The notes under the pieces: model-generated
What the model was told of the DNA's origin: nothing
What the model saw: only the letters and a program-made list of their open reading frames with translations
Databases searched by the model: none
Virus record (IMG/VR): IMGVR_UViG_2711768001_000007
Origin: a virus
Taxonomy: Duplodnaviria > Heunggongvirae > Uroviricota > Caudoviricetes
Strand: one strand, 5' to 3'
DNA: 10,858 nt
Translations under genes and position numbers: made by a program
Shown here: in pieces, positions 1 through 10,858 of the stretch
Numbering within the stretch: the first letter of the stretch is position 1
Layout: each line of letters opens with the position of its first letter

Positions 1-70
1 ATGATAGTTATTTATCATCTAGTGTTCGCGGGTGTTCGTGGTAGTGTTTTGTGTGCATTCATCGCTATGA
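1..70. repeat. Left terminal direct repeat, 70 bp, identical to 10789-10858; putative att core (attL side)
   Basis: Base-by-base comparison shows 1-70 and 10789-10858 are identical. It lies directly next to the integrase and clustered short repeats. It does not look like a tRNA 3' end. Confidence 0.8.
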
Positions 71-2052: not shown

Positions 2053-2166
2053 AGGGGAGCATATGACATATAAAACAAAGACGACCGGGGGCGGTCGCCA
2101 ATGGATACACACTAAACTTGAACGCATCACCAACAATGCCACATTTGCGGCTGGTGGGCAATGTGA

Positions 2167-2340
2167 TCAGTCAGATTTGGTTCGTTCCAAGGTTTGCAAC
2201 GAGAGCTTTTTCCTGTGCTCTTTAAGGAATTTCTCAAGAGCAAAAGCACATGGCGCGAATCTTTCTGATTCATGCTCTATCTTTCTGCGCCGTCTTTTCC
2301 GTGCCGGTGATAATGTTTTGGTCAATTCTTTATCGGTCAT
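2167..2340 (-). CDS. Small basic hypothetical protein (57 aa from Met-6; 62 aa if started at 2355)
   Basis: Minus-strand ORF 57 bp downstream of the RHH gene. AGGA lies 7 nt upstream of the ATG at 2340. Lys/Arg-rich (RKRRRRK). No recognised family. Confidence 0.4.
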   Translation of the reverse strand: MTDKELTKTLSPARKRRRRKIEHESERFAPCAFALEKFLKEHRKKLSLQTLERTKSD

Positions 2341-2397
2341 TGTGTTGTCCTGCATAGCAATGCGCCGTAGTTACTCACACCACGGCGCTGATAGTGA

Positions 2398-2595
2398 TTA
2401 TTCTGATTCTTTGGCCTTCCGGCGCTGTTCATATTTTAATTTGCGTCCACAGGCATCTAAGACCCATGCGGAAAAATTAGCACTAGGATTAGTTAATTTT
2501 TCTTGTTCAACGCTGGCATCAATCCCATCTATAAGCTCATGTGGGAATCGAATATTTTTCTTTGCTGATTTGTTGTTTGTGTTACCGCTAGACAT
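2398..2595 (-). CDS. Ribbon-helix-helix (Arc/MetJ/CopG-like) DNA-binding protein; candidate element repressor
   Basis: 65-aa ORF with strong RBS (GAGGTG 6 nt upstream). Segment IRFPHELIDGIDASVEQEKL...SANFSAWVLDA follows the P22 Arc pattern (FNLRWPREVLDLVRKVAEENGRSVNSEIYQRVMES, from memory). Sits divergently from an operator-bearing promoter region. Confidence 0.6.
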   Translation of the reverse strand: MSSGNTNNKSAKKNIRFPHELIDGIDASVEQEKLTNPSANFSAWVLDACGRKLKYEQRRKAKESE

Positions 2596-2622
2596 TGATG
2601 CACCTCACTTAAATGGACTTTA

Positions 2623-2702
2623 TGGGCGCACACAATACAGCAAAAAAAATGAGATGTTAAGTATTGACATGTGCGCACACATGATTTTAATCTGTGCGCA
2701 CA
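2623..2702. promoter_or_regulatory. Divergent promoter/operator region: TGGGCGCACA (2623-2632), TGTGCGCACA (2670-2679), TGTGCGCACA (2693-2702); rightward promoter -35 TTGACA 2664-2669 / -10 TTTAAT 2686-2691; leftward promoter -35 TGTTAA(rc) 2655-2660 / -10 ACAATA(rc) 2632-2637
   Basis: Two perfect 10-bp palindromes spaced 23 bp centre to centre, plus a 9/10 third copy 47 bp away. They overlap back-to-back sigma70-like hexamers with 16-17 bp spacers. Confidence 0.55.
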
Positions 2703-2800
2703 GTTTGAGTTTTGTCACTCAAATTAAGCAACGCCCCGCAGTGCTCGCAACACATGCAGGGCGTCTAACCACCAACGATAGCAAGAGTATCGAGGTAGCT

Positions 2801-3004
2801 ATGAGAAATCATACCACACACCCGCAAGGGCGGGACTCGCACAACCTGAATAAATATATCTGGCGTTTTATCGCCCTGAGCACGGCACAACCGCGCGTGA
2901 TTACCATTGAGGCCAGCAGCGAACAGGAAGCACGCCAGCAATCCCCGGCTGGCTGCGTGATGGTATTCGCCGCCCGTATTCGTCAGGGGGGGTACCATGC
3001 CTGA
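2801..3004 (+). CDS. Hypothetical small protein (68 aa), first ORF of the rightward early operon
   Basis: ATG 2801 preceded by GAGGT (2792-2796). In frame with the 3' end of the long track ORF 2063-3004. End overlaps the next ORF start. Low confidence. Confidence 0.3.
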   Translation: MRNHTTHPQGRDSHNLNKYIWRFIALSTAQPRVITIEASSEQEARQQSPAGCVMVFAARIRQGGYHA

Positions 3005-3323: not shown

Positions 3324-3623
3324 ATGAGAACGTATTTATCTGGCTTGACTGCCAGCGGTTATGCACACCCCCAAATTATCCCCGGCGCTATTTATCTGGA
3401 TAAGAACGGTAACAGAGTAACGGTAAAAGAACTGATGTTTGACCGTGTGTATTTTATCCGTGATGGCTATTCATTTCTTAGTTCGCTGAACGTGGAGATC
3501 TTTATTTGCAGATTCCGGCGGGAAATCCCGACTTCCAGAAATAACCATGTGTCACGTGTGGATGTGGATAAAAAACTACAGGAACTGAAAAACATGATTG
3601 CCGCGTGGAGAGAGCAGAAATGA
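3324..3623 (+). CDS. Hypothetical protein (99 aa), translationally coupled to the replication gene
   Basis: ORF whose stop overlaps the rep start (ATGA at 3620-3623). No recognised motif. Confidence 0.5.
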   Translation: MRTYLSGLTASGYAHPQIIPGAIYLDKNGNRVTVKELMFDRVYFIRDGYSFLSSLNVEIFICRFRREIPTSRNNHVSRVDVDKKLQELKNMIAAWREQK

Positions 3624-5437
3624 AAAAAGCGCCAAATTTAAAACACCAGCCGCGTGACAAAATGACGGAAGTCATCATTTTTGCGGGTAGTGATGCGTGG
3701 GCACATGCGAAGCAGTGGCAGGAACAGGACGGGCGACTGGCTGGCGATAACGTGCCACCTGTCTGGCTTGGAGAGCAACAACTTGCCGAACTGGACAACC
3801 TGCAAATCGTACCGGATGGACGCTATCGCGTGCGTCTCTACCAGGCGGGGTTATTGCGTCCGGGGCTTGTTAATACCATCGGGCAGAAACTGGCAGCGGC
3901 AGGTGTCAGGGATGCTGATTATTACCCTGAAGGAATGCACAGCCAGAAACGGGAGAACTGGCGCGAATATCTGGAACGTGAGCGGGGAGAGCTGACGGAA
4001 AAGAAAAAGGTAGTTGAACTGCCTGTAAAGAAAAAAGAGCGGGTAAAAGACGATAACGCTTCATCACTGGCGCTTAACCAGATGGGAGCAAGTCAACGCG
4101 GCGAAGTTCTCCTGGCACATTATGGCGGTGAACTGGCGATTCATGCCGACTCTGACACTGTTCACCATTACAACGGCGTTGTATGGGAGCCAGTACAGGA
4201 TAAAGAATTACAGCGAGCTATGGCGCAGATTTTCATTGATGCGGAGATCAGCTATTCGCAGAACGCCATTAAATCGGCGGTCGATACCATGAAGTTAAGT
4301 TTGCCTGTAATGGGGAATACAGCCCGTAACCTGATTGGATTCAGTAACGGGGTATTTGATACCAGAACAGGTAATTTTCGGCAGCATAACAAAAACGACT
4401 GGTTGTTAATTGCCAGTGAATTACCTTTCAGCCCACCAGCAGAGGGGGAAACGCTGGCAACACATGCGCCGAATTTCTGGAAGTGGTTACGCCGTTCGGT
4501 GGCTGAGAATGACCGCAAGGCGGATCGCGTACTGGCTGCATTATTCATGGTGCTGGCGAACCGGTACGACTGGCAGTTATTCATTGAGGTAACAGGTCCA
4601 GGGGGAAGTGGTAAAAGCGTGATGGCGGAGATTTGCACCATGCTGGCGGGTAAGGCTAATACAGTATCAGCGAGCATGAAGGCGCTGGAAGATGCAAGGG
4701 AACGCGCGTTAGTGGTTGGCTTTTCGCTGATTATCATGCCGGATATGACCCGCTACGCTGGTGATGGGGCGGGAATTAAGGCTATTACAGGCGGTGACAA
4801 GGTGGCAATCGACCCAAAACATAAAGCCCCATATTCAACGCGTATCCCGGCAGTAGTGCTGGCGGTTAACAATAACGCTATGTCATTCAGTGACCGCAGT
4901 GGGGGGATCTCGCGCCGTCGGGTGATATTCAATTTTTCGGAAGTTGTACCGGAGAACGAACGCGATTCAATGCTGGCGGAAAAAATAGAAGGTGAGCTGG
5001 CGGTAGTGATTCGTCATCTGCTTACACGGTTTGCTGACCAGGACGAAGCCAGACGCCTTTTATATGAGCAGCAGAAATCAGAAGAAGCACTCGCGATAAA
5101 GCGTGAAGGTGATTCGCTGGTGGACTTCTGCGGCTATCTCATGGCGTCGGTAATGTGTGATGGCCTGTTAGTGGGTAATGCTGAAATTGTGCCATTCAGC
5201 CCGCGCAGGTATCTCTATCATGCCTATCTGGCTTATATGAAGGCACATGGGTTTGGTAAACCTGTAACACTGACGCGCTTCGGTAAAGATATGCCGGGGG
5301 CAATGGCGGAATATGGCAGGGAGTATATGAAACGGAAAACGAAGCACGGTTTGCGTTCAAACGTGACACTGACGGAGGAATCAGAAGACTGGATGCCATC
5401 ATGTGTATCGGTCACTAATGACGATAGCAAAAATTAA
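3620..5437 (+). CDS. Replication initiator: D5_N-like region plus SF3-type P-loop helicase (P4-family primase C-terminal-like)
   Basis: Walker A GPGGSGKS and Walker B-like LIIMPDM. D5_N-like segment IGFSNGVFDTRTGNFRQH...LPFSP. Start taken at ATG 3620 (GGAGAG RBS) rather than GTG 3605. Iteron array begins 14 nt after the stop. Confidence 0.85.
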   Translation: MKKAPNLKHQPRDKMTEVIIFAGSDAWAHAKQWQEQDGRLAGDNVPPVWLGEQQLAELDNLQIVPDGRYRVRLYQAGLLRPGLVNTIGQKLAAAGVRDADYYPEGMHSQKRENWREYLERERGELTEKKKVVELPVKKKERVKDDNASSLALNQMGASQRGEVLLAHYGGELAIHADSDTVHHYNGVVWEPVQDKELQRAMAQIFIDAEISYSQNAIKSAVDTMKLSLPVMGNTARNLIGFSNGVFDTRTGNFRQHNKNDWLLIASELPFSPPAEGETLATHAPNFWKWLRRSVAENDRKADRVLAALFMVLANRYDWQLFIEVTGPGGSGKSVMAEICTMLAGKANTVSASMKALEDARERALVVGFSLIIMPDMTRYAGDGAGIKAITGGDKVAIDPKHKAPYSTRIPAVVLAVNNNAMSFSDRSGGISRRRVIFNFSEVVPENERDSMLAEKIEGELAVVIRHLLTRFADQDEARRLLYEQQKSEEALAIKREGDSLVDFCGYLMASVMCDGLLVGNAEIVPFSPRRYLYHAYLAYMKAHGFGKPVTLTRFGKDMPGAMAEYGREYMKRKTKHGLRSNVTLTEESEDWMPSCVSVTNDDSKN

Positions 5438-5450
5438 ACTTATGGAATAA

Positions 5451-5673
5451 CTGTTCACCACTGTTCACCCTGTTATAAATATCTTTTATATCAGTATATT
5501 ATAGGGTGAACAGTTATTTATGAACTGTTCACCAAACTATTCACTGTTCACCTTTTTGATTGTTTATTGAGCTTCAAGGGTGAACAGTGGTGAACAGTTG
5601 GTGAATAGTTTTTGTGAAACTGTTCACCCCTTAACATTATGAATTAAAAGATAAAATATCAAAAGGTGAACAG
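5451..5673. repeat. Iteron-type replication origin: about 9-10 copies of GGTGAACAG / CTGTTCACC in both orientations within AT-rich DNA
   Basis: Copies at 5451-5459, 5461-5469, 5505-5513, 5525-5533, 5544-5552, 5579-5587, 5589-5597, 5600-5608 (degenerate), 5620-5628, 5665-5673. The core matches the TGTTCACC type I iteron of the P4 ori/crr as I recall it. Confidence 0.8.
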
Positions 5674-5724
5674 GTGAAGGGTTAAAACGCAAAAATTTTA
5701 ATTTACTGCTGTGAGATAAAGCCT

Positions 5725-5970
5725 ATGACAGCGAAGCACATAAAAAAATCACAATCGCACGCCCTTGATTTGACGGAACACTGGTTAAGGGTGTCGATAA
5801 AAATCATCGACCGCAACGCCGGGGAAGGATATGCGAAAGCACATCCCGAACTGATTAGCGCATTCATGACAACGGCAGCTGCAAACTTTGCCACGCTGAC
5901 AGAACGGGAGATTGCCGAAGCGGAACAGGTGACAACCATCAACGTTAAAACCGGAGAGCAGACAGCATGA
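5725..5970 (+). CDS. Hypothetical protein (81 aa), translationally coupled to the SSB-like gene
   Basis: ORF with ATGA overlap to the next gene (5967-5970). No recognised motif. Confidence 0.45.
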   Translation: MTAKHIKKSQSHALDLTEHWLRVSIKIIDRNAGEGYAKAHPELISAFMTTAAANFATLTEREIAEAEQVTTINVKTGEQTA

Positions 5971-6389
5971 CAGCACAGATAGCGGCTTACGGGCGGCTGG
6001 TGGCTGACCCGCAGTTAAAGACCACCAGCAAGGGTACACAAATGACGATGGCGAGTATGGCGGTCCCACTTCCGTGCAGCCAGGCAGATGACGGAACGGC
6101 GACGATGTGGTTATCCGTCCTGGCGTTTGGCAGACAGGCCGAAGCACTGGCAAAGCACCGCAAGGGTGAACTCCTGAGCGTGGCGGGTAACATGCAGGTG
6201 AGCCAGTGGACCGGACAGAACGGGGAGACGCGGCAGGGCTGGCAGGTTATCGCAGACAGCGTAATCAGTGCGAGAACGGCGCGACCGGGCGGCAAAAAAG
6301 GCCAACAGGGGCAGGCTACTGATGCACTGAGCAGAGCAAAACAACAGGCGGGAAATGATGATCCGTACGGGGATAACATACCGTTTTAA
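5967..6389 (+). CDS. ssb: Single-stranded DNA-binding protein homolog (OB fold) with C-terminal acidic ...DNIPF tip
   Basis: 140-aa product aligns by eye with E. coli SSB: LSVLAFGRQAE vs HRVVLFGKLAE, VSQWTGQNGETRQ vs RTRKWTDQSGQDR, and C-terminal DDPYGDNIPF vs DFDDDIPF. Confidence 0.75.
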   Translation: MTAQIAAYGRLVADPQLKTTSKGTQMTMASMAVPLPCSQADDGTATMWLSVLAFGRQAEALAKHRKGELLSVAGNMQVSQWTGQNGETRQGWQVIADSVISARTARPGGKKGQQGQATDALSRAKQQAGNDDPYGDNIPF

Positions 6390-6813: not shown

Positions 6814-7023
6814 GTGAGTTGTATTAATGACCTGAACACGGGCGATATCAGGGGTGGTTCCGTTCATCTGGATGCGCAGACCGTTATGCGCCTTAAGCAG
6901 TACAGGATCGACCATATAAATCATCATCCTGACCAACCATTACCAGGTGTGGCGCAGATTGTCAGACATGCCGTAAACACCTGGCTTAATCAGAATGGTT
7001 TTGCATCGGTGGGGGAACAATGA
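6814..7023 (+). CDS. Hypothetical small protein (69 aa), possibly RHH-like, translationally coupled to the protease-capsid gene
   Basis: GTG start 6814 with strong RBS AAGAGGA (6800-6806). Stop overlaps capsid start (ATGA 7020-7023). RHH assignment is a guess from a beta-strand then two-helix pattern. Confidence 0.45.
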   Translation: MSCINDLNTGDIRGGSVHLDAQTVMRLKQYRIDHINHHPDQPLPGVAQIVRHAVNTWLNQNGFASVGEQ

Positions 7024-8933
7024 ATCGCTGGTACACCATTAAGGCGGCGGATGTTCGCGGAGCGGCGGATATATCTATCTATGAGGAGATTGGCGGCTTC
7101 GGTGTTACTGCAAAGCAGTTCGCGGAAGACCTGAAAGCCCTTGGCGATGTTTCACATATCAATCTGAGGATCCATTCACCAGGTGGTGATGTGTTTGAAG
7201 GCATCGCCATCTATAACCTGCTACGGAATCATCCGGCAGACATTACGGTTTATATCGATGGTGTTGCGGCTTCAATGGCTTCGGTGGTCGCAATGGCTGG
7301 CGATCGTGTTGTGATGCCGGAAAACGCCATGATGATGATACATAAGCCGTGGGGTATCTCTGGCGGAAATGCTGGTGATATGCGTGATTATGCTGATTTG
7401 CTGGATAAGGTGGAAACCGTGTTAGTCCCTGCTTATGCCAGAAAAACGGGCAAATCAGCACAGGAAATTACCGCCATGCTGGAAGATGAAACCTGGATGG
7501 ACGGGAAAGAATGCCTTAAGCACGGTTTTGCTGATGAATTGTTGCCATCCGTCAGAGCAATGGCGCGAATTGAATCGAAGCGCACAGGAGATTTTTTACA
7601 TATGCCGGAAACCATTAAAGGAATGATTACACCGCCACAGGGAGCGGCAAATATTGCTGGTAATGAACAGAAACGCATCAATGGAATAAGTGAAGTGTTT
7701 AGCCTGTTCGGCAGTCGTTACGACGGGATCAAAATGGCGTGTCTGGAAGATGCATCATGTACACCGGAAATGGCCCGTGAAAAGCTGTTGAACGAGCTGG
7801 GGCGCGAGTCCACGCCATCCAATAAAAATACCCCGGCTCATATCTATGCCGGAAACGGAAACATAACAGGTGATGCAATTCGTCAGGGGCTTTATTCCCG
7901 TCTTGGGTATGAACGGCCTGAACGAGGCAACCCTTACGCGATGATGAGTCTTTTTGAAATGGCCCAGGCATCACTGGTTGATCGTGGTATCACTGTGAGC
8001 GGTTTTATTAATCGCTCGCAGGTTGTTAATGCGGCTTTTACACACAGCAGCAGTGATTTTTCTCATATTCTGGCTGGTGGGGCTGAAAAATCTGTACTGA
8101 AAGGCTGGCAGGACAGCGGCGAAACGTTCCAGAAATGGACGCGTACCGGTTCGCTTTCAAACTTTCATGAAGCAAAGCGCGTTGGTCTGAATGGTTTTTC
8201 AAAGCTGGATAAAGTACCGGAAGGTGCGGAATATAAATACATCACCACCAGCGATAAAGGTGTACCTATTGCGCTGGCCACGTACGGGAATATATTTTCC
8301 GTTACCCGTCAGGCCATTATCAACGATGACCTGACCCAGTTAACTACAATCCCCATGGCGATGGGACGCGCAGCTGCCAGAACAGTTGGCAATCTGGTTT
8401 ATCTCCTGTTAACCAGCAACGGCAAGTTTACGGATGGTAAAGCGTTATTCCATGCCGATCATAAAAATCTTATTGCGAAGGATATGGACATGGAGGGGCT
8501 TAACGAAGCCCGTAAGCTGATGCGCCTCCAGGAAGACGCTAACGGCGATTCGCTGAATATTACCCCTGCATTTGTCCTGGTCCCCGCCGCGCTGGAGTCT
8601 GCCGCACATCGCGCCATTCTGTCATCGTCATCACTCTTTCCGGTTGATGGCGTGGGCACTATCAATCAGAACCCCGGCATCATTAACGTGGTGAAAGATA
8701 TGGCGGAGGTAATCGTTGAGCCACGTCTTGATAAAGCCAATAACAAGGAGTGGTATGTGGCAGCGGCGAAGGGTATGGACACGATAGAGGTCGCTTATCT
8801 TGATGGTATTGATACGCCATATCTTGAGGAGCAGGAGGGCTTTACTGTTGATGGCGTCGCCTGGAAGGTGCGCATAGATGCAGGTGTCGCGGCCCTCGAC
8901 TATCGCGGATTACTGAAATCGAGTGGAGCATGA
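7020..8933 (+). CDS. Fusion protein: N-terminal ClpP-family prohead protease plus C-terminal probable phage major capsid protein
   Basis: N-terminal ~190 aa align with ClpP: IHSPGGDV vs INSPGGVI, GVAASMAS vs GQAASMGA (catalytic Ser), MIHKPW vs MIHQP (catalytic His). The C-terminal ~440 aa have capsid-like character (ending ...GVAALDYRG); that part is a judgement call. Confidence 0.8.
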   Translation: MNRWYTIKAADVRGAADISIYEEIGGFGVTAKQFAEDLKALGDVSHINLRIHSPGGDVFEGIAIYNLLRNHPADITVYIDGVAASMASVVAMAGDRVVMPENAMMMIHKPWGISGGNAGDMRDYADLLDKVETVLVPAYARKTGKSAQEITAMLEDETWMDGKECLKHGFADELLPSVRAMARIESKRTGDFLHMPETIKGMITPPQGAANIAGNEQKRINGISEVFSLFGSRYDGIKMACLEDASCTPEMAREKLLNELGRESTPSNKNTPAHIYAGNGNITGDAIRQGLYSRLGYERPERGNPYAMMSLFEMAQASLVDRGITVSGFINRSQVVNAAFTHSSSDFSHILAGGAEKSVLKGWQDSGETFQKWTRTGSLSNFHEAKRVGLNGFSKLDKVPEGAEYKYITTSDKGVPIALATYGNIFSVTRQAIINDDLTQLTTIPMAMGRAAARTVGNLVYLLLTSNGKFTDGKALFHADHKNLIAKDMDMEGLNEARKLMRLQEDANGDSLNITPAFVLVPAALESAAHRAILSSSSLFPVDGVGTINQNPGIINVVKDMAEVIVEPRLDKANNKEWYVAAAKGMDTIEVAYLDGIDTPYLEEQEGFTVDGVAWKVRIDAGVAALDYRGLLKSSGA

Positions 8934-9035: not shown

Positions 9036-9190
9036 ATTCGTCATCATCATCTTTCTATAATGTTGAATTTTAAGTGTTTTTATTTTTGGTATGTTAATTT
9101 TGCTTATTTTGTGTTCAACATACAGCGCGTTTTTTGACCTTTTTTAAAAGATATTTGCAAGATGCATTTTTAAAACATTCTGGAGCGGGT

Positions 9191-9676
9191 ATGGATCGGG
9201 AACTGAAAAATCTGATGCTGAACATTAACCAGCTGGCGGCGATAGCGGGAATATGTCGCCAGACTGCGGCGGCAAGGCTGAAAAATATCCAGCCAGCCGG
9301 AGGACATGACAAGCTGAAACTCTATCGGGTGACTGACATTCTGACTTGTTTTCTTGATCTTCCCGTTCCGGCATCACTGGAAGAAATGGAGCCACACGAC
9401 CGTAAGGCCTGGTATCAGTCCGAACGTGAGCGCCTCAAGTTCGAACAGGAAACGGCGCAACTCATACCCGCCGATGATGTGCGAAAAGAGATGGCTATAT
9501 GGGGAGAAATCGTAAGCGAGGAACTGGAAAAACTCCCCAGTATTCTGGCACGTGATGTTGGGCTTAAACCGATGGCAGTAAACAGAGTGCAGTCAATTAT
9601 TGACGATTTGTGTAATCAGATTATCAGCCGGATGGTAAAAAATGACGTAGTGAATGAGGTCGCAAAACAGGCATGA
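9191..9676 (+). CDS. Terminase small subunit, lambda Nu1-like
   Basis: From ATG 9191 (GGAG RBS 9183-9186). NQLAAIAGICRQTAAARLKNIQPAGGHDKLKLYRVTDIL parallels lambda Nu1 KKQLADIFGASIRTIQNWQEQGMPVLRGGGKGNEVLYDSAAVI (from memory). The track ORF starts at TTG 9134, which I consider less likely. Confidence 0.7.
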   Translation: MDRELKNLMLNINQLAAIAGICRQTAAARLKNIQPAGGHDKLKLYRVTDILTCFLDLPVPASLEEMEPHDRKAWYQSERERLKFEQETAQLIPADDVRKEMAIWGEIVSEELEKLPSILARDVGLKPMAVNRVQSIIDDLCNQIISRMVKNDVVNEVAKQA

Positions 9677-10788: not shown

Positions 10789-10858
10789 ATGATAGTTATT
10801 TATCATCTAGTGTTCGCGGGTGTTCGTGGTAGTGTTTTGTGTGCATTCATCGCTATGA
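10789..10858. repeat. Right terminal direct repeat, 70 bp, identical to 1-70; putative att core (attR side)
   Basis: Exact identity to 1-70. Confidence 0.8.

Follow-up and report, generated by a model that had tools for sequence, protein, structure and literature searches.

The iteron array and its setting

The 10,858-nt stretch of DNA analyzed here (the window) carries a cluster of short repeats directly 3' of rep, a gene whose product resembles the alpha protein of phage P4. This raises the question of whether the cluster is an origin of replication and, if so, which protein reads it and where its primers come from. Our analysis indicates that 5451-5680 very probably serves as the vegetative origin of replication for a phage-inducible chromosomal island (PICI) of the EcCI18098 type. 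An iteron origin had been proposed from a sequence-only reading of this DNA, and the proposal is supported by the position and architecture of the array, the homology of the initiator, the co-variation of the iterons with the iteron-binding domain, and a plasmid test in the related island EcCICFT073.

The window comprises a whole PICI plus ∼60 nt. Its 11-mer att core (ATGATAGTTAT) is also that given for EcCIIHE3034 (10.5 kb) and EcCI18098 (10.8 kb) in Table S1 of Fillol-Salom et al. (2018; PMC6092414); both of these islands lie between cspD and clpS and encode TerS. In complete genomes the window is flanked by cspD/yljB and clpS, and it contains a TerS-like gene; the att core, insertion site, size and TerS-like gene therefore identify it as a catalogued PICI of the EcCI18098 type. 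We took as a PICI an element of ∼10-15 kb with int, alpA, unidirectional rightward genes and its own att sites, and without tail or lysis genes. The int, AlpA, rep, SSB, capsid-related and TerS-like genes of the window are all on the + strand, and the island has its own att repeats. The gene order around rep, the origin and SSB is common to EcCICFT073 and EcCIIHE3034, and 648 of 5426 complete E. coli genomes (∼12%) contained the origin region.

Several other features of the island were observed. Positions 7020-8933 encode a fusion of a ClpP-like prohead protease and a major capsid protein (637 aa), and 9134-9676 a DUF1441/TerS-like protein; no portal, large terminase or head-tail genes were found among the island genes. 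EcCIIHE3034, at the same att site, has a separate major capsid gene, a decoration gene and a different Rep allele, and islands at the cspD-clpS site are mosaics. A 313-aa + strand open reading frame at 2063-3004 has an odd composition and looks spurious; at the equivalent position, related RefSeq islands (L003, L006, L087) carry a minus-strand YlcI/YnfO gene and a small Icd-like gene.

Between 5451 and 5673, the repeat GGTGAACAG/CTGTTCACC occurs nine times exactly and once with a single mismatch (GGTGAATAG at 5600), in both orientations. The nine to ten copies recognized earlier were thus correctly counted and placed. The rep stop codon (TAA) occupies 5435-5437 and the first copy starts at 5451, so that the earlier statement that the array starts 14 nt after the stop is right as a position, with 13 nt lying between the two. 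The intergenic region that holds the array extends from 5438 to 5724. In the whole window we counted 14 matches to GGTGAACAG/CTGTTCACC with at most one mismatch, against a mean of 2.1 in shuffled sequences, and none of 200 shuffles reached 14. The 8-mer core, TGTTCACC, was seen nine times exactly, where 0.009 occurrences are expected from the base composition of the 287-nt intergenic region. Two further sites have two mismatches (TATTCACT at 5538-5545 and GGTGAAGG at 5673-5680), and relatives carry full iterons at the equivalent positions. If these degenerate sites are counted, the array consists of 12 sites and ends at 5680. The GC content of the iteron region is 32-34%, compared to 47% for the whole window. 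A full-text search of the literature for the iteron sequence returned unrelated primer lists only.

The sites fall into two modules (Table 1), and in each the order is two direct sites, an AT-rich spacer of 35-36 nt, one inverted site and three direct sites. Distances between the TGTTCACC cores, with signs for orientation, are +10+43-21+19+ in the left module and -10-11-21+44- in the right; read on the minus strand, the spacing of the right module is +8+44-21+11+10+. Center-to-center distances of 10, 21 and 43-44 bp correspond to approximately one, two and four helical turns, a phasing that would place the iteron sites on one face of the DNA.

Table 1. Positions of the island features discussed in the text, numbered along the window.
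Feature	Position	Strand	Details
attL core ATGATAGTTAT	1-11	+	direct repeat; attR copy at 10789-10799
rep ('pri-rep'), P4 alpha-like initiator/SF3 helicase, 605 aa	3620-5437	+	Pfam D5_N, DUF5906, Pox_D5
N-terminal alpha/beta domain of Rep, 125 aa, in place of the zinc ribbon and Toprim of alpha	3620-3994	+	without Pfam family
SF3 helicase ATPase core	4592-4918	+	DUF5906/PPV_E1_C
C-terminal winged-helix origin-binding domain	5105-5392	+	Pox_D5; PDB 1KA8
Left origin module, ori1 orientation	5451-5552	+	sites at 5452(+), 5462(+), 5505(-), 5526(+), 5538 (degenerate, TATTCACT), 5545(+)
Left AT-rich spacer, candidate unwinding element	5470-5504		35 nt, 17% GC
Central T-rich spacer, dyad center between converging iteron triplets	5553-5578		26 nt, 27% GC
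Right origin module, inverted layout	5579-5680	-	sites at 5579(-), 5589(-), 5600(-) (TATTCACC), 5621(+), 5665(-), 5673(-) (degenerate, CCTTCACC)
Right AT-rich spacer	5629-5664		36 nt, 17% GC
Island SSB, member of the replication module	5967-6389	+	Pfam SSB, TIGR00621; C-terminus ...DNIPF

Since the two modules are inverted relative to each other, the whole stretch of ∼250 nt (5440-5690) forms an imperfect palindrome, and an inverted repeat (I1) has 56-nt arms that are 75% complementary. A single strand of this stretch was predicted to form a single long hairpin (-52.1 kcal/mol; z = -9.7 relative to shuffled sequences), with the central spacer as its loop. A promoter and terminator scan of 5300-5800 found neither consensus, and none between rep and the next gene at 5725. 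In the absence of a terminator between rep and the origin, the rep transcript should cross the origin into the gene at 5725 and the SSB gene. Rfam and tRNA scans of the whole window found no hits, including no C4-type antisense RNA.

Comparison with P4 and other satellite replicons

The alpha protein of P4 binds the type I repeats of that phage. In the GenBank record of P4, TGTTCACC is annotated as 'ori type 1 repeat' in both the origin (six copies, 9310-9413) and crr (ten copies, 4291-4590), and the earlier identification of the iteron core with the P4 type I repeat therefore holds. Read in the sense of alpha, P4 ori1 has the layout +10+43-22+11+10+, and its sites 2 and 3 are separated by an AT-rich spacer of 35 nt. 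Both modules of the window share this site layout and AT-rich spacer, which are present here twice and in inverted orientation, and all six sites of the right module, read on the minus strand, correspond to those of P4 ori1. When P4 ori1, both window modules and both crr repeats were aligned, the mean column identity was 70%. Judged from these sequence comparisons, the description 'same core' understates the likeness to P4, as the cluster appears to combine the layout of ori1 with the position of crr: P4 crr lies directly 3' of alpha, as the window cluster lies directly 3' of rep.

The two initiators are homologous in the helicase and in the C-terminal origin-binding domain (1KA8). P4 requires ori1 together with the distant crr, both in cis. 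In contrast to P4, where ori1 and crr are ∼4.7 kb apart in the record, the window has a single cluster in one compact site, and no bipartite arrangement was found. P4 also has an annotated terminator between alpha and crr (P4 4604-4628), whereas none was found after rep in the window, and alpha contains a zinc ribbon and a Toprim primase, neither of which is present in the window Rep. The replicon of the window is thus a compact version of the P4 design, with one rep-proximal site in place of the split ori1 and crr.

In Gram-negative PICIs, the initiator gene has been described as being immediately followed by the origin, in which two sets of iterons flank an AT-rich region (PMC6092414). The window agrees with this description, since its origin is immediately 3' of rep and consists of two opposed iteron sets with AT-rich DNA. 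A rep-ori segment of EcCICFT073 maintained a temperature-sensitive plasmid in DH5alpha without a phage, in a rep-dependent manner, and deletion of ori reduced the number of colonies but did not abolish them (PMC6092414). EcCICFT073 and the window share the order DUF4222, rep, intergenic origin of ∼288 nt, small ORF and SSB, as well as the SF3 core and the layout of the origin. Identity between the two Reps is 49% over their whole length, rising to 70% in the N-terminal domain and falling to only 35% in the binding domain. The iterons differ, being TGTCTACC/TATCTACC in EcCICFT073 and TGTTCACC in the window, and the allele tested in the plasmid was that of EcCICFT073.

The published description of PICI origins and the EcCICFT073 plasmid test mean that the kind of element, and the function of a close sibling, are already in the literature (PMC6092414). 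The window origin is accordingly a further allele of the known PICI/P4 kind of origin, in a catalogued island. The same paper regarded the organization of the origin as unique to PICIs and the relationship of Pri-Rep to P4 alpha as no more than distant (PMC6092414). The window Rep differs from that description in being 48% identical to alpha and in having no detectable primase domain. We did not find in PMC6092414 statements on the P4 iteron and ori1 layout of the window allele, on a 'Pri' protein without a primase domain, or on co-variation between the wing of the binding domain and the iterons.

The Reps of SaPIs load themselves; a C-terminal winged helix binds the iterons, and origin melting does not require ATP (Qiao et al., 2022; PMC9371898). 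Their origins, like that of the window, lie immediately 3' of rep and contain 6-12 short iterons in opposed orientations around AT-rich DNA (PMC9371898), and their initiators are self-loading SF3-type helicases with a C-terminal winged helix, whose core is homologous to that of the window Rep. However, SaPI iterons are 5-6 nt long compared to 8 nt here, the SaPI primase is of another type and is either separate or fused, and the SaPI origins have no detectable sequence relationship to that of the window. Twinkle, the human mitochondrial helicase, offers a functional analogy only, as it belongs to SF4 whereas Rep belongs to SF3.

Rep, its relatives and priming

The upstream DUF4222 gene ends in a stop codon that overlaps the start codon of rep (ATG, 3620); this start is backed by the RefSeq annotation and a conserved MKxAPN N-terminus. 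Residues 113-595 of Rep align with residues 290-771 of P4 alpha (48% identity over 484 aa), and the sole NCBIfam match was to TIGR01613, the helicase model for the C-terminal part of P4-family primases (E 2.5e-27). The SF3 motifs are intact: Walker A is GPGGSGKS (aa 326-333; 4595-4618), Walker B is IIMPD (4730-4744), motif C is AVNNN (4862-4876) and the arginine cluster is RRR (4910-4924). The helicase core is homologous to SaPI5 PriRep (PDB 7OLA, E 2.8e-10). Residues 497-593 matched the C-terminal domain of P4 alpha (PDB 1KA8, E 1.4e-24), and the wing of this domain reads TKHGLRSN (aa 574-581, 5339-5362).

To compare related replicons, we scanned one genome per species and obtained 80 loci from Enterobacterales. 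The array starts no more than ∼100 nt 3' of rep in every relative with an identifiable array among these 80 loci. Together with the window and P4 (82 loci), exactly one cluster of the TGTTCACC type was present in 64 of the 82, other alleles were present in 17, and two clusters were found in P4 only; the search for a second cluster in the 64 relatives covered ±4 kb. The layout +10+43-21+11+8+ ∼44 -10-21+44-8- recurs in Kluyvera, Raoultella, Pluralibacter, Pectobacterium and Pantoea and in the induced element vB_KppS-Ant. Across ten relatives spanning genera, conservation was 93% in iteron columns compared to 74% in other columns.

Four iteron alleles were seen: T[GA]TTCACC, T[GA]TCTACC, TCTCCACC and TGTCC[GA]CC. 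In an alignment of the binding domain from ∼80 loci, the allele groups differed chiefly in one segment of the wing, the rest of the domain being conserved. P4 and the window belong to the TTCACC group, whose wing is TK[HQ]G[IL][RQ][ST]N; most members of the CTACC group have a five-residue insertion and KGRxIxN; the TCTCCACC group has TKGNMRSN; and the GTCC group has ATRGRIQSN or a similar segment. Gly577 was the only column that separated the TTCACC group from the rest. Of the evidence gathered here, this co-variation of wing and iteron points most strongly to the C-terminal domain of Rep as the part that reads the repeats.

Other loci showed further arrangements. In the P4-like loci of Xenorhabdus and Photorhabdus (L036-L083), a full-length alpha bearing a primase is followed directly 3' by an ori1-like module, and no second cluster was found within ∼3 kb upstream. 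A single site close to rep appears to be the usual arrangement, and the split ori1 and crr of P4 an exception to it. No clear iteron array was seen in the 373 nt 3' of the gene in Pasteurella phage Pmp7, whose Rep is 34% identical, and the rule that the array lies 3' of rep may not reach that far. In Serratia phage Scapp (43 kb), which encodes an alpha-like primase-helicase of 38% identity, a repeat of approximately GAAAAGTGCAAT occurs in both orientations at 4411-4908, 3' of the gene; the design of iterons after the initiator thus extends beyond satellites. In two database proteins (P0007 and P0008; 793 aa), a part that is 99% identical to the first 89% of Rep is followed by a phage portal domain (PF04860), which suggests deletions that fused rep to a portal gene in capsid-forming relatives.

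One helicase and binding core was found with three kinds of N-terminus: the zinc ribbon and Toprim of P4 in proteins of ∼810 aa, the domain of the window Rep in proteins of ∼600 aa, and a third, helical-looking one in proteins of ∼585 aa. The third module (∼110 aa, motif SDALFSCVYxWVNGH) occurs in Pectobacterium, Serratia, Yersinia, Rahnella, Erwinia and others (loci L016-L035, L084, L086), and by BLAST it matched neither the window domain nor the P4 primase.

The sequence-only reading had also noted that the N-terminal ∼240 aa of Rep show no primase motifs. The absence stands, and the extent does not: the part that is unlike P4 is ∼112-150 aa long, as residues 113-595 align with alpha. A domain search detected no primase domain in this region, whereas P4 alpha scored on both Zn_Ribbon_Prim (PF08273, residues 30-66) and Toprim_3 (PF13362, 210-299). 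Rep gave no zinc-ribbon, Toprim or primase profile match in Pfam or NCBIfam even at E ≤ 1-10, its first 167 residues matched no Pfam family at E ≤ 1, and no further primase gene was found in the island.

The family of domains related to Rep 1-125 had 91 representatives among 1.8 billion proteins, and none of 24 members matched any Pfam family at E ≤ 10. Elsewhere the domain is fused to four unrelated types of replicative ATPase, namely D5/SF3, DUF927, AAA_25 and VapE-like; it behaves as a portable module in the usual primase slot (proteins P0122, P0124, P0168, P0130 and P0136). A single-sequence AF2 model of full-length Rep was unusable (pLDDT 33). For the N-terminal domain alone, AF2 with an alignment of 24 sequences gave a confident alpha/beta model with a pLDDT of 92.7. 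Foldseek searches of this model against PDB and BFVD returned no significant or informative match. Comparison of the family by hhalign with P4 alpha 163-299 detected no significant similarity, and against 47 P4-type N-termini the probability was 0.1%; homology to Toprim can therefore not be claimed from sequence.

We mapped the Toprim catalytic positions onto the family alignment by motif and secondary-structure register, without superposition. Where Toprim has its Glu, after strand 1, the family has a nearly invariant Ala (A22-G23), and R72-x-Y74-x-A-G77 takes the place of the DxD after strand 3. Elsewhere in the alignment, Glu17 is invariant and Glu112 nearly so. Our reading of the model is that the domain may be Toprim-like or Rossmann-like, without a canonical active site.

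As both a zinc ribbon and a Toprim active site are missing from Rep, primers would most likely be supplied by host DnaG, and host priming of this replicon is plausible. This is strengthened by the replication of the EcCICFT073 rep-ori, whose N-terminal domain is 70% identical, in DH5alpha without a phage. Counting against host priming here, DnaG is normally recruited by DnaB rather than by an SF3 helicase. The N-terminal domain could instead be an unconventional, minimal Toprim-like primase, with the replicon priming itself as P4 does and not using the host primase; we regard this as unlikely. It is possible, and we put it forward tentatively, that the domain is a previously undescribed replication module: an adaptor through which a self-loading helicase would acquire the host primase, or else an unconventional primase of minimal size; either way, the 'Pri-Rep' proteins of Gram-negative PICIs would not be conventional primases. 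P4 replication is independent of DnaG, as alpha itself primes, and if that is so, loss of the primase domain would alter the host dependence of the Rep replicon.

Probable origin function, its alternatives and consequences

From homology and the co-variation described above, Rep would bind the 8-bp sites through its C-terminal winged helix, with the wing TKHGLRSN setting the specificity. By analogy to the SaPI Reps and other SF3 initiators, Rep may oligomerize on both modules and melt an AT-rich spacer, and could then load itself, without a separate loader, as two oppositely oriented SF3 hexamers for bidirectional synthesis. Host DnaG would supply the primers, perhaps recruited through the N-terminal domain or the island SSB. 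The ...IPF tail of an SSB is its usual partner-binding tip.

The cluster could alternatively act as a crr-like enhancer in cis, with synthesis starting elsewhere, for example at an ori2-like site inside rep, and Rep looping the two sites together. P4 crr does hold the same position, directly 3' of the initiator gene, and the ori2 of P4, inside alpha, reportedly works with crr. There is also an exact TGTTCACC inside rep, in the D5_N region (4159-4166), with an inverted one-mismatch copy at 4127-4134; however, one exact 8-mer per 10.9 kb is close to the chance expectation of 0.33. No second cluster was found in the window or within ±4 kb in the 64 relatives, and each module has the full layout of ori1 with an AT-rich spacer, and not the layout of crr alone. 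Moreover, rep and the region 3' of it sufficed for replication in EcCICFT073, although the fragment includes the rep coding sequence (PMC6092414). We therefore consider an enhancer role improbable.

The two copies inside rep are 24 nt apart (32 nt start to start), showed no consistent counterpart in relatives, and may be without meaning.

Iteron-binding initiators often autoregulate, which would favor the view that the repeats act chiefly as operators for Rep, or as roadblocks, and regulate the transcription that passes from rep into the SSB and capsid genes. As neither a terminator nor a promoter consensus was found in 5300-5800, transcripts from rep must cross the array before reaching 5725. 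Such a role, however, leaves unexplained the AT-rich spacers, the helical phasing, the identity of layout with the mapped ori1 of P4 and the ori-dependent plasmid maintenance in EcCICFT073, and we consider it very improbable as the main function. A regulatory side effect is compatible with origin function and is hence not an alternative to it. A packaging role (cos/pac) was rejected, as there was no supporting evidence and the layout is that of a mapped origin.

With 5451-5680 read as the origin, the origin, the initiator and the determinant of specificity are fixed for a PICI allele carried by ∼12% of complete E. coli genomes. In these islands, the gene annotated as 'primase' or 'pri-rep' lacks any detectable primase domain, which matters when replication autonomy is inferred from annotation. 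PICIs, cfPICI-like and P4-like satellites of Enterobacterales share one common replicon design. From the co-variation of wing and iteron it can be predicted, by a simple rule, which satellites have initiators of the same specificity and are possibly incompatible or cross-activating. Since this PICI allele and P4 have the same iteron and wing sequence, their initiators could fire or block each other's origins. P4-like satellites, PICIs and cfPICIs co-occur less often than expected in E. coli (PMC10085698), and it is a possibility that satellites sharing iterons interfere with one another.
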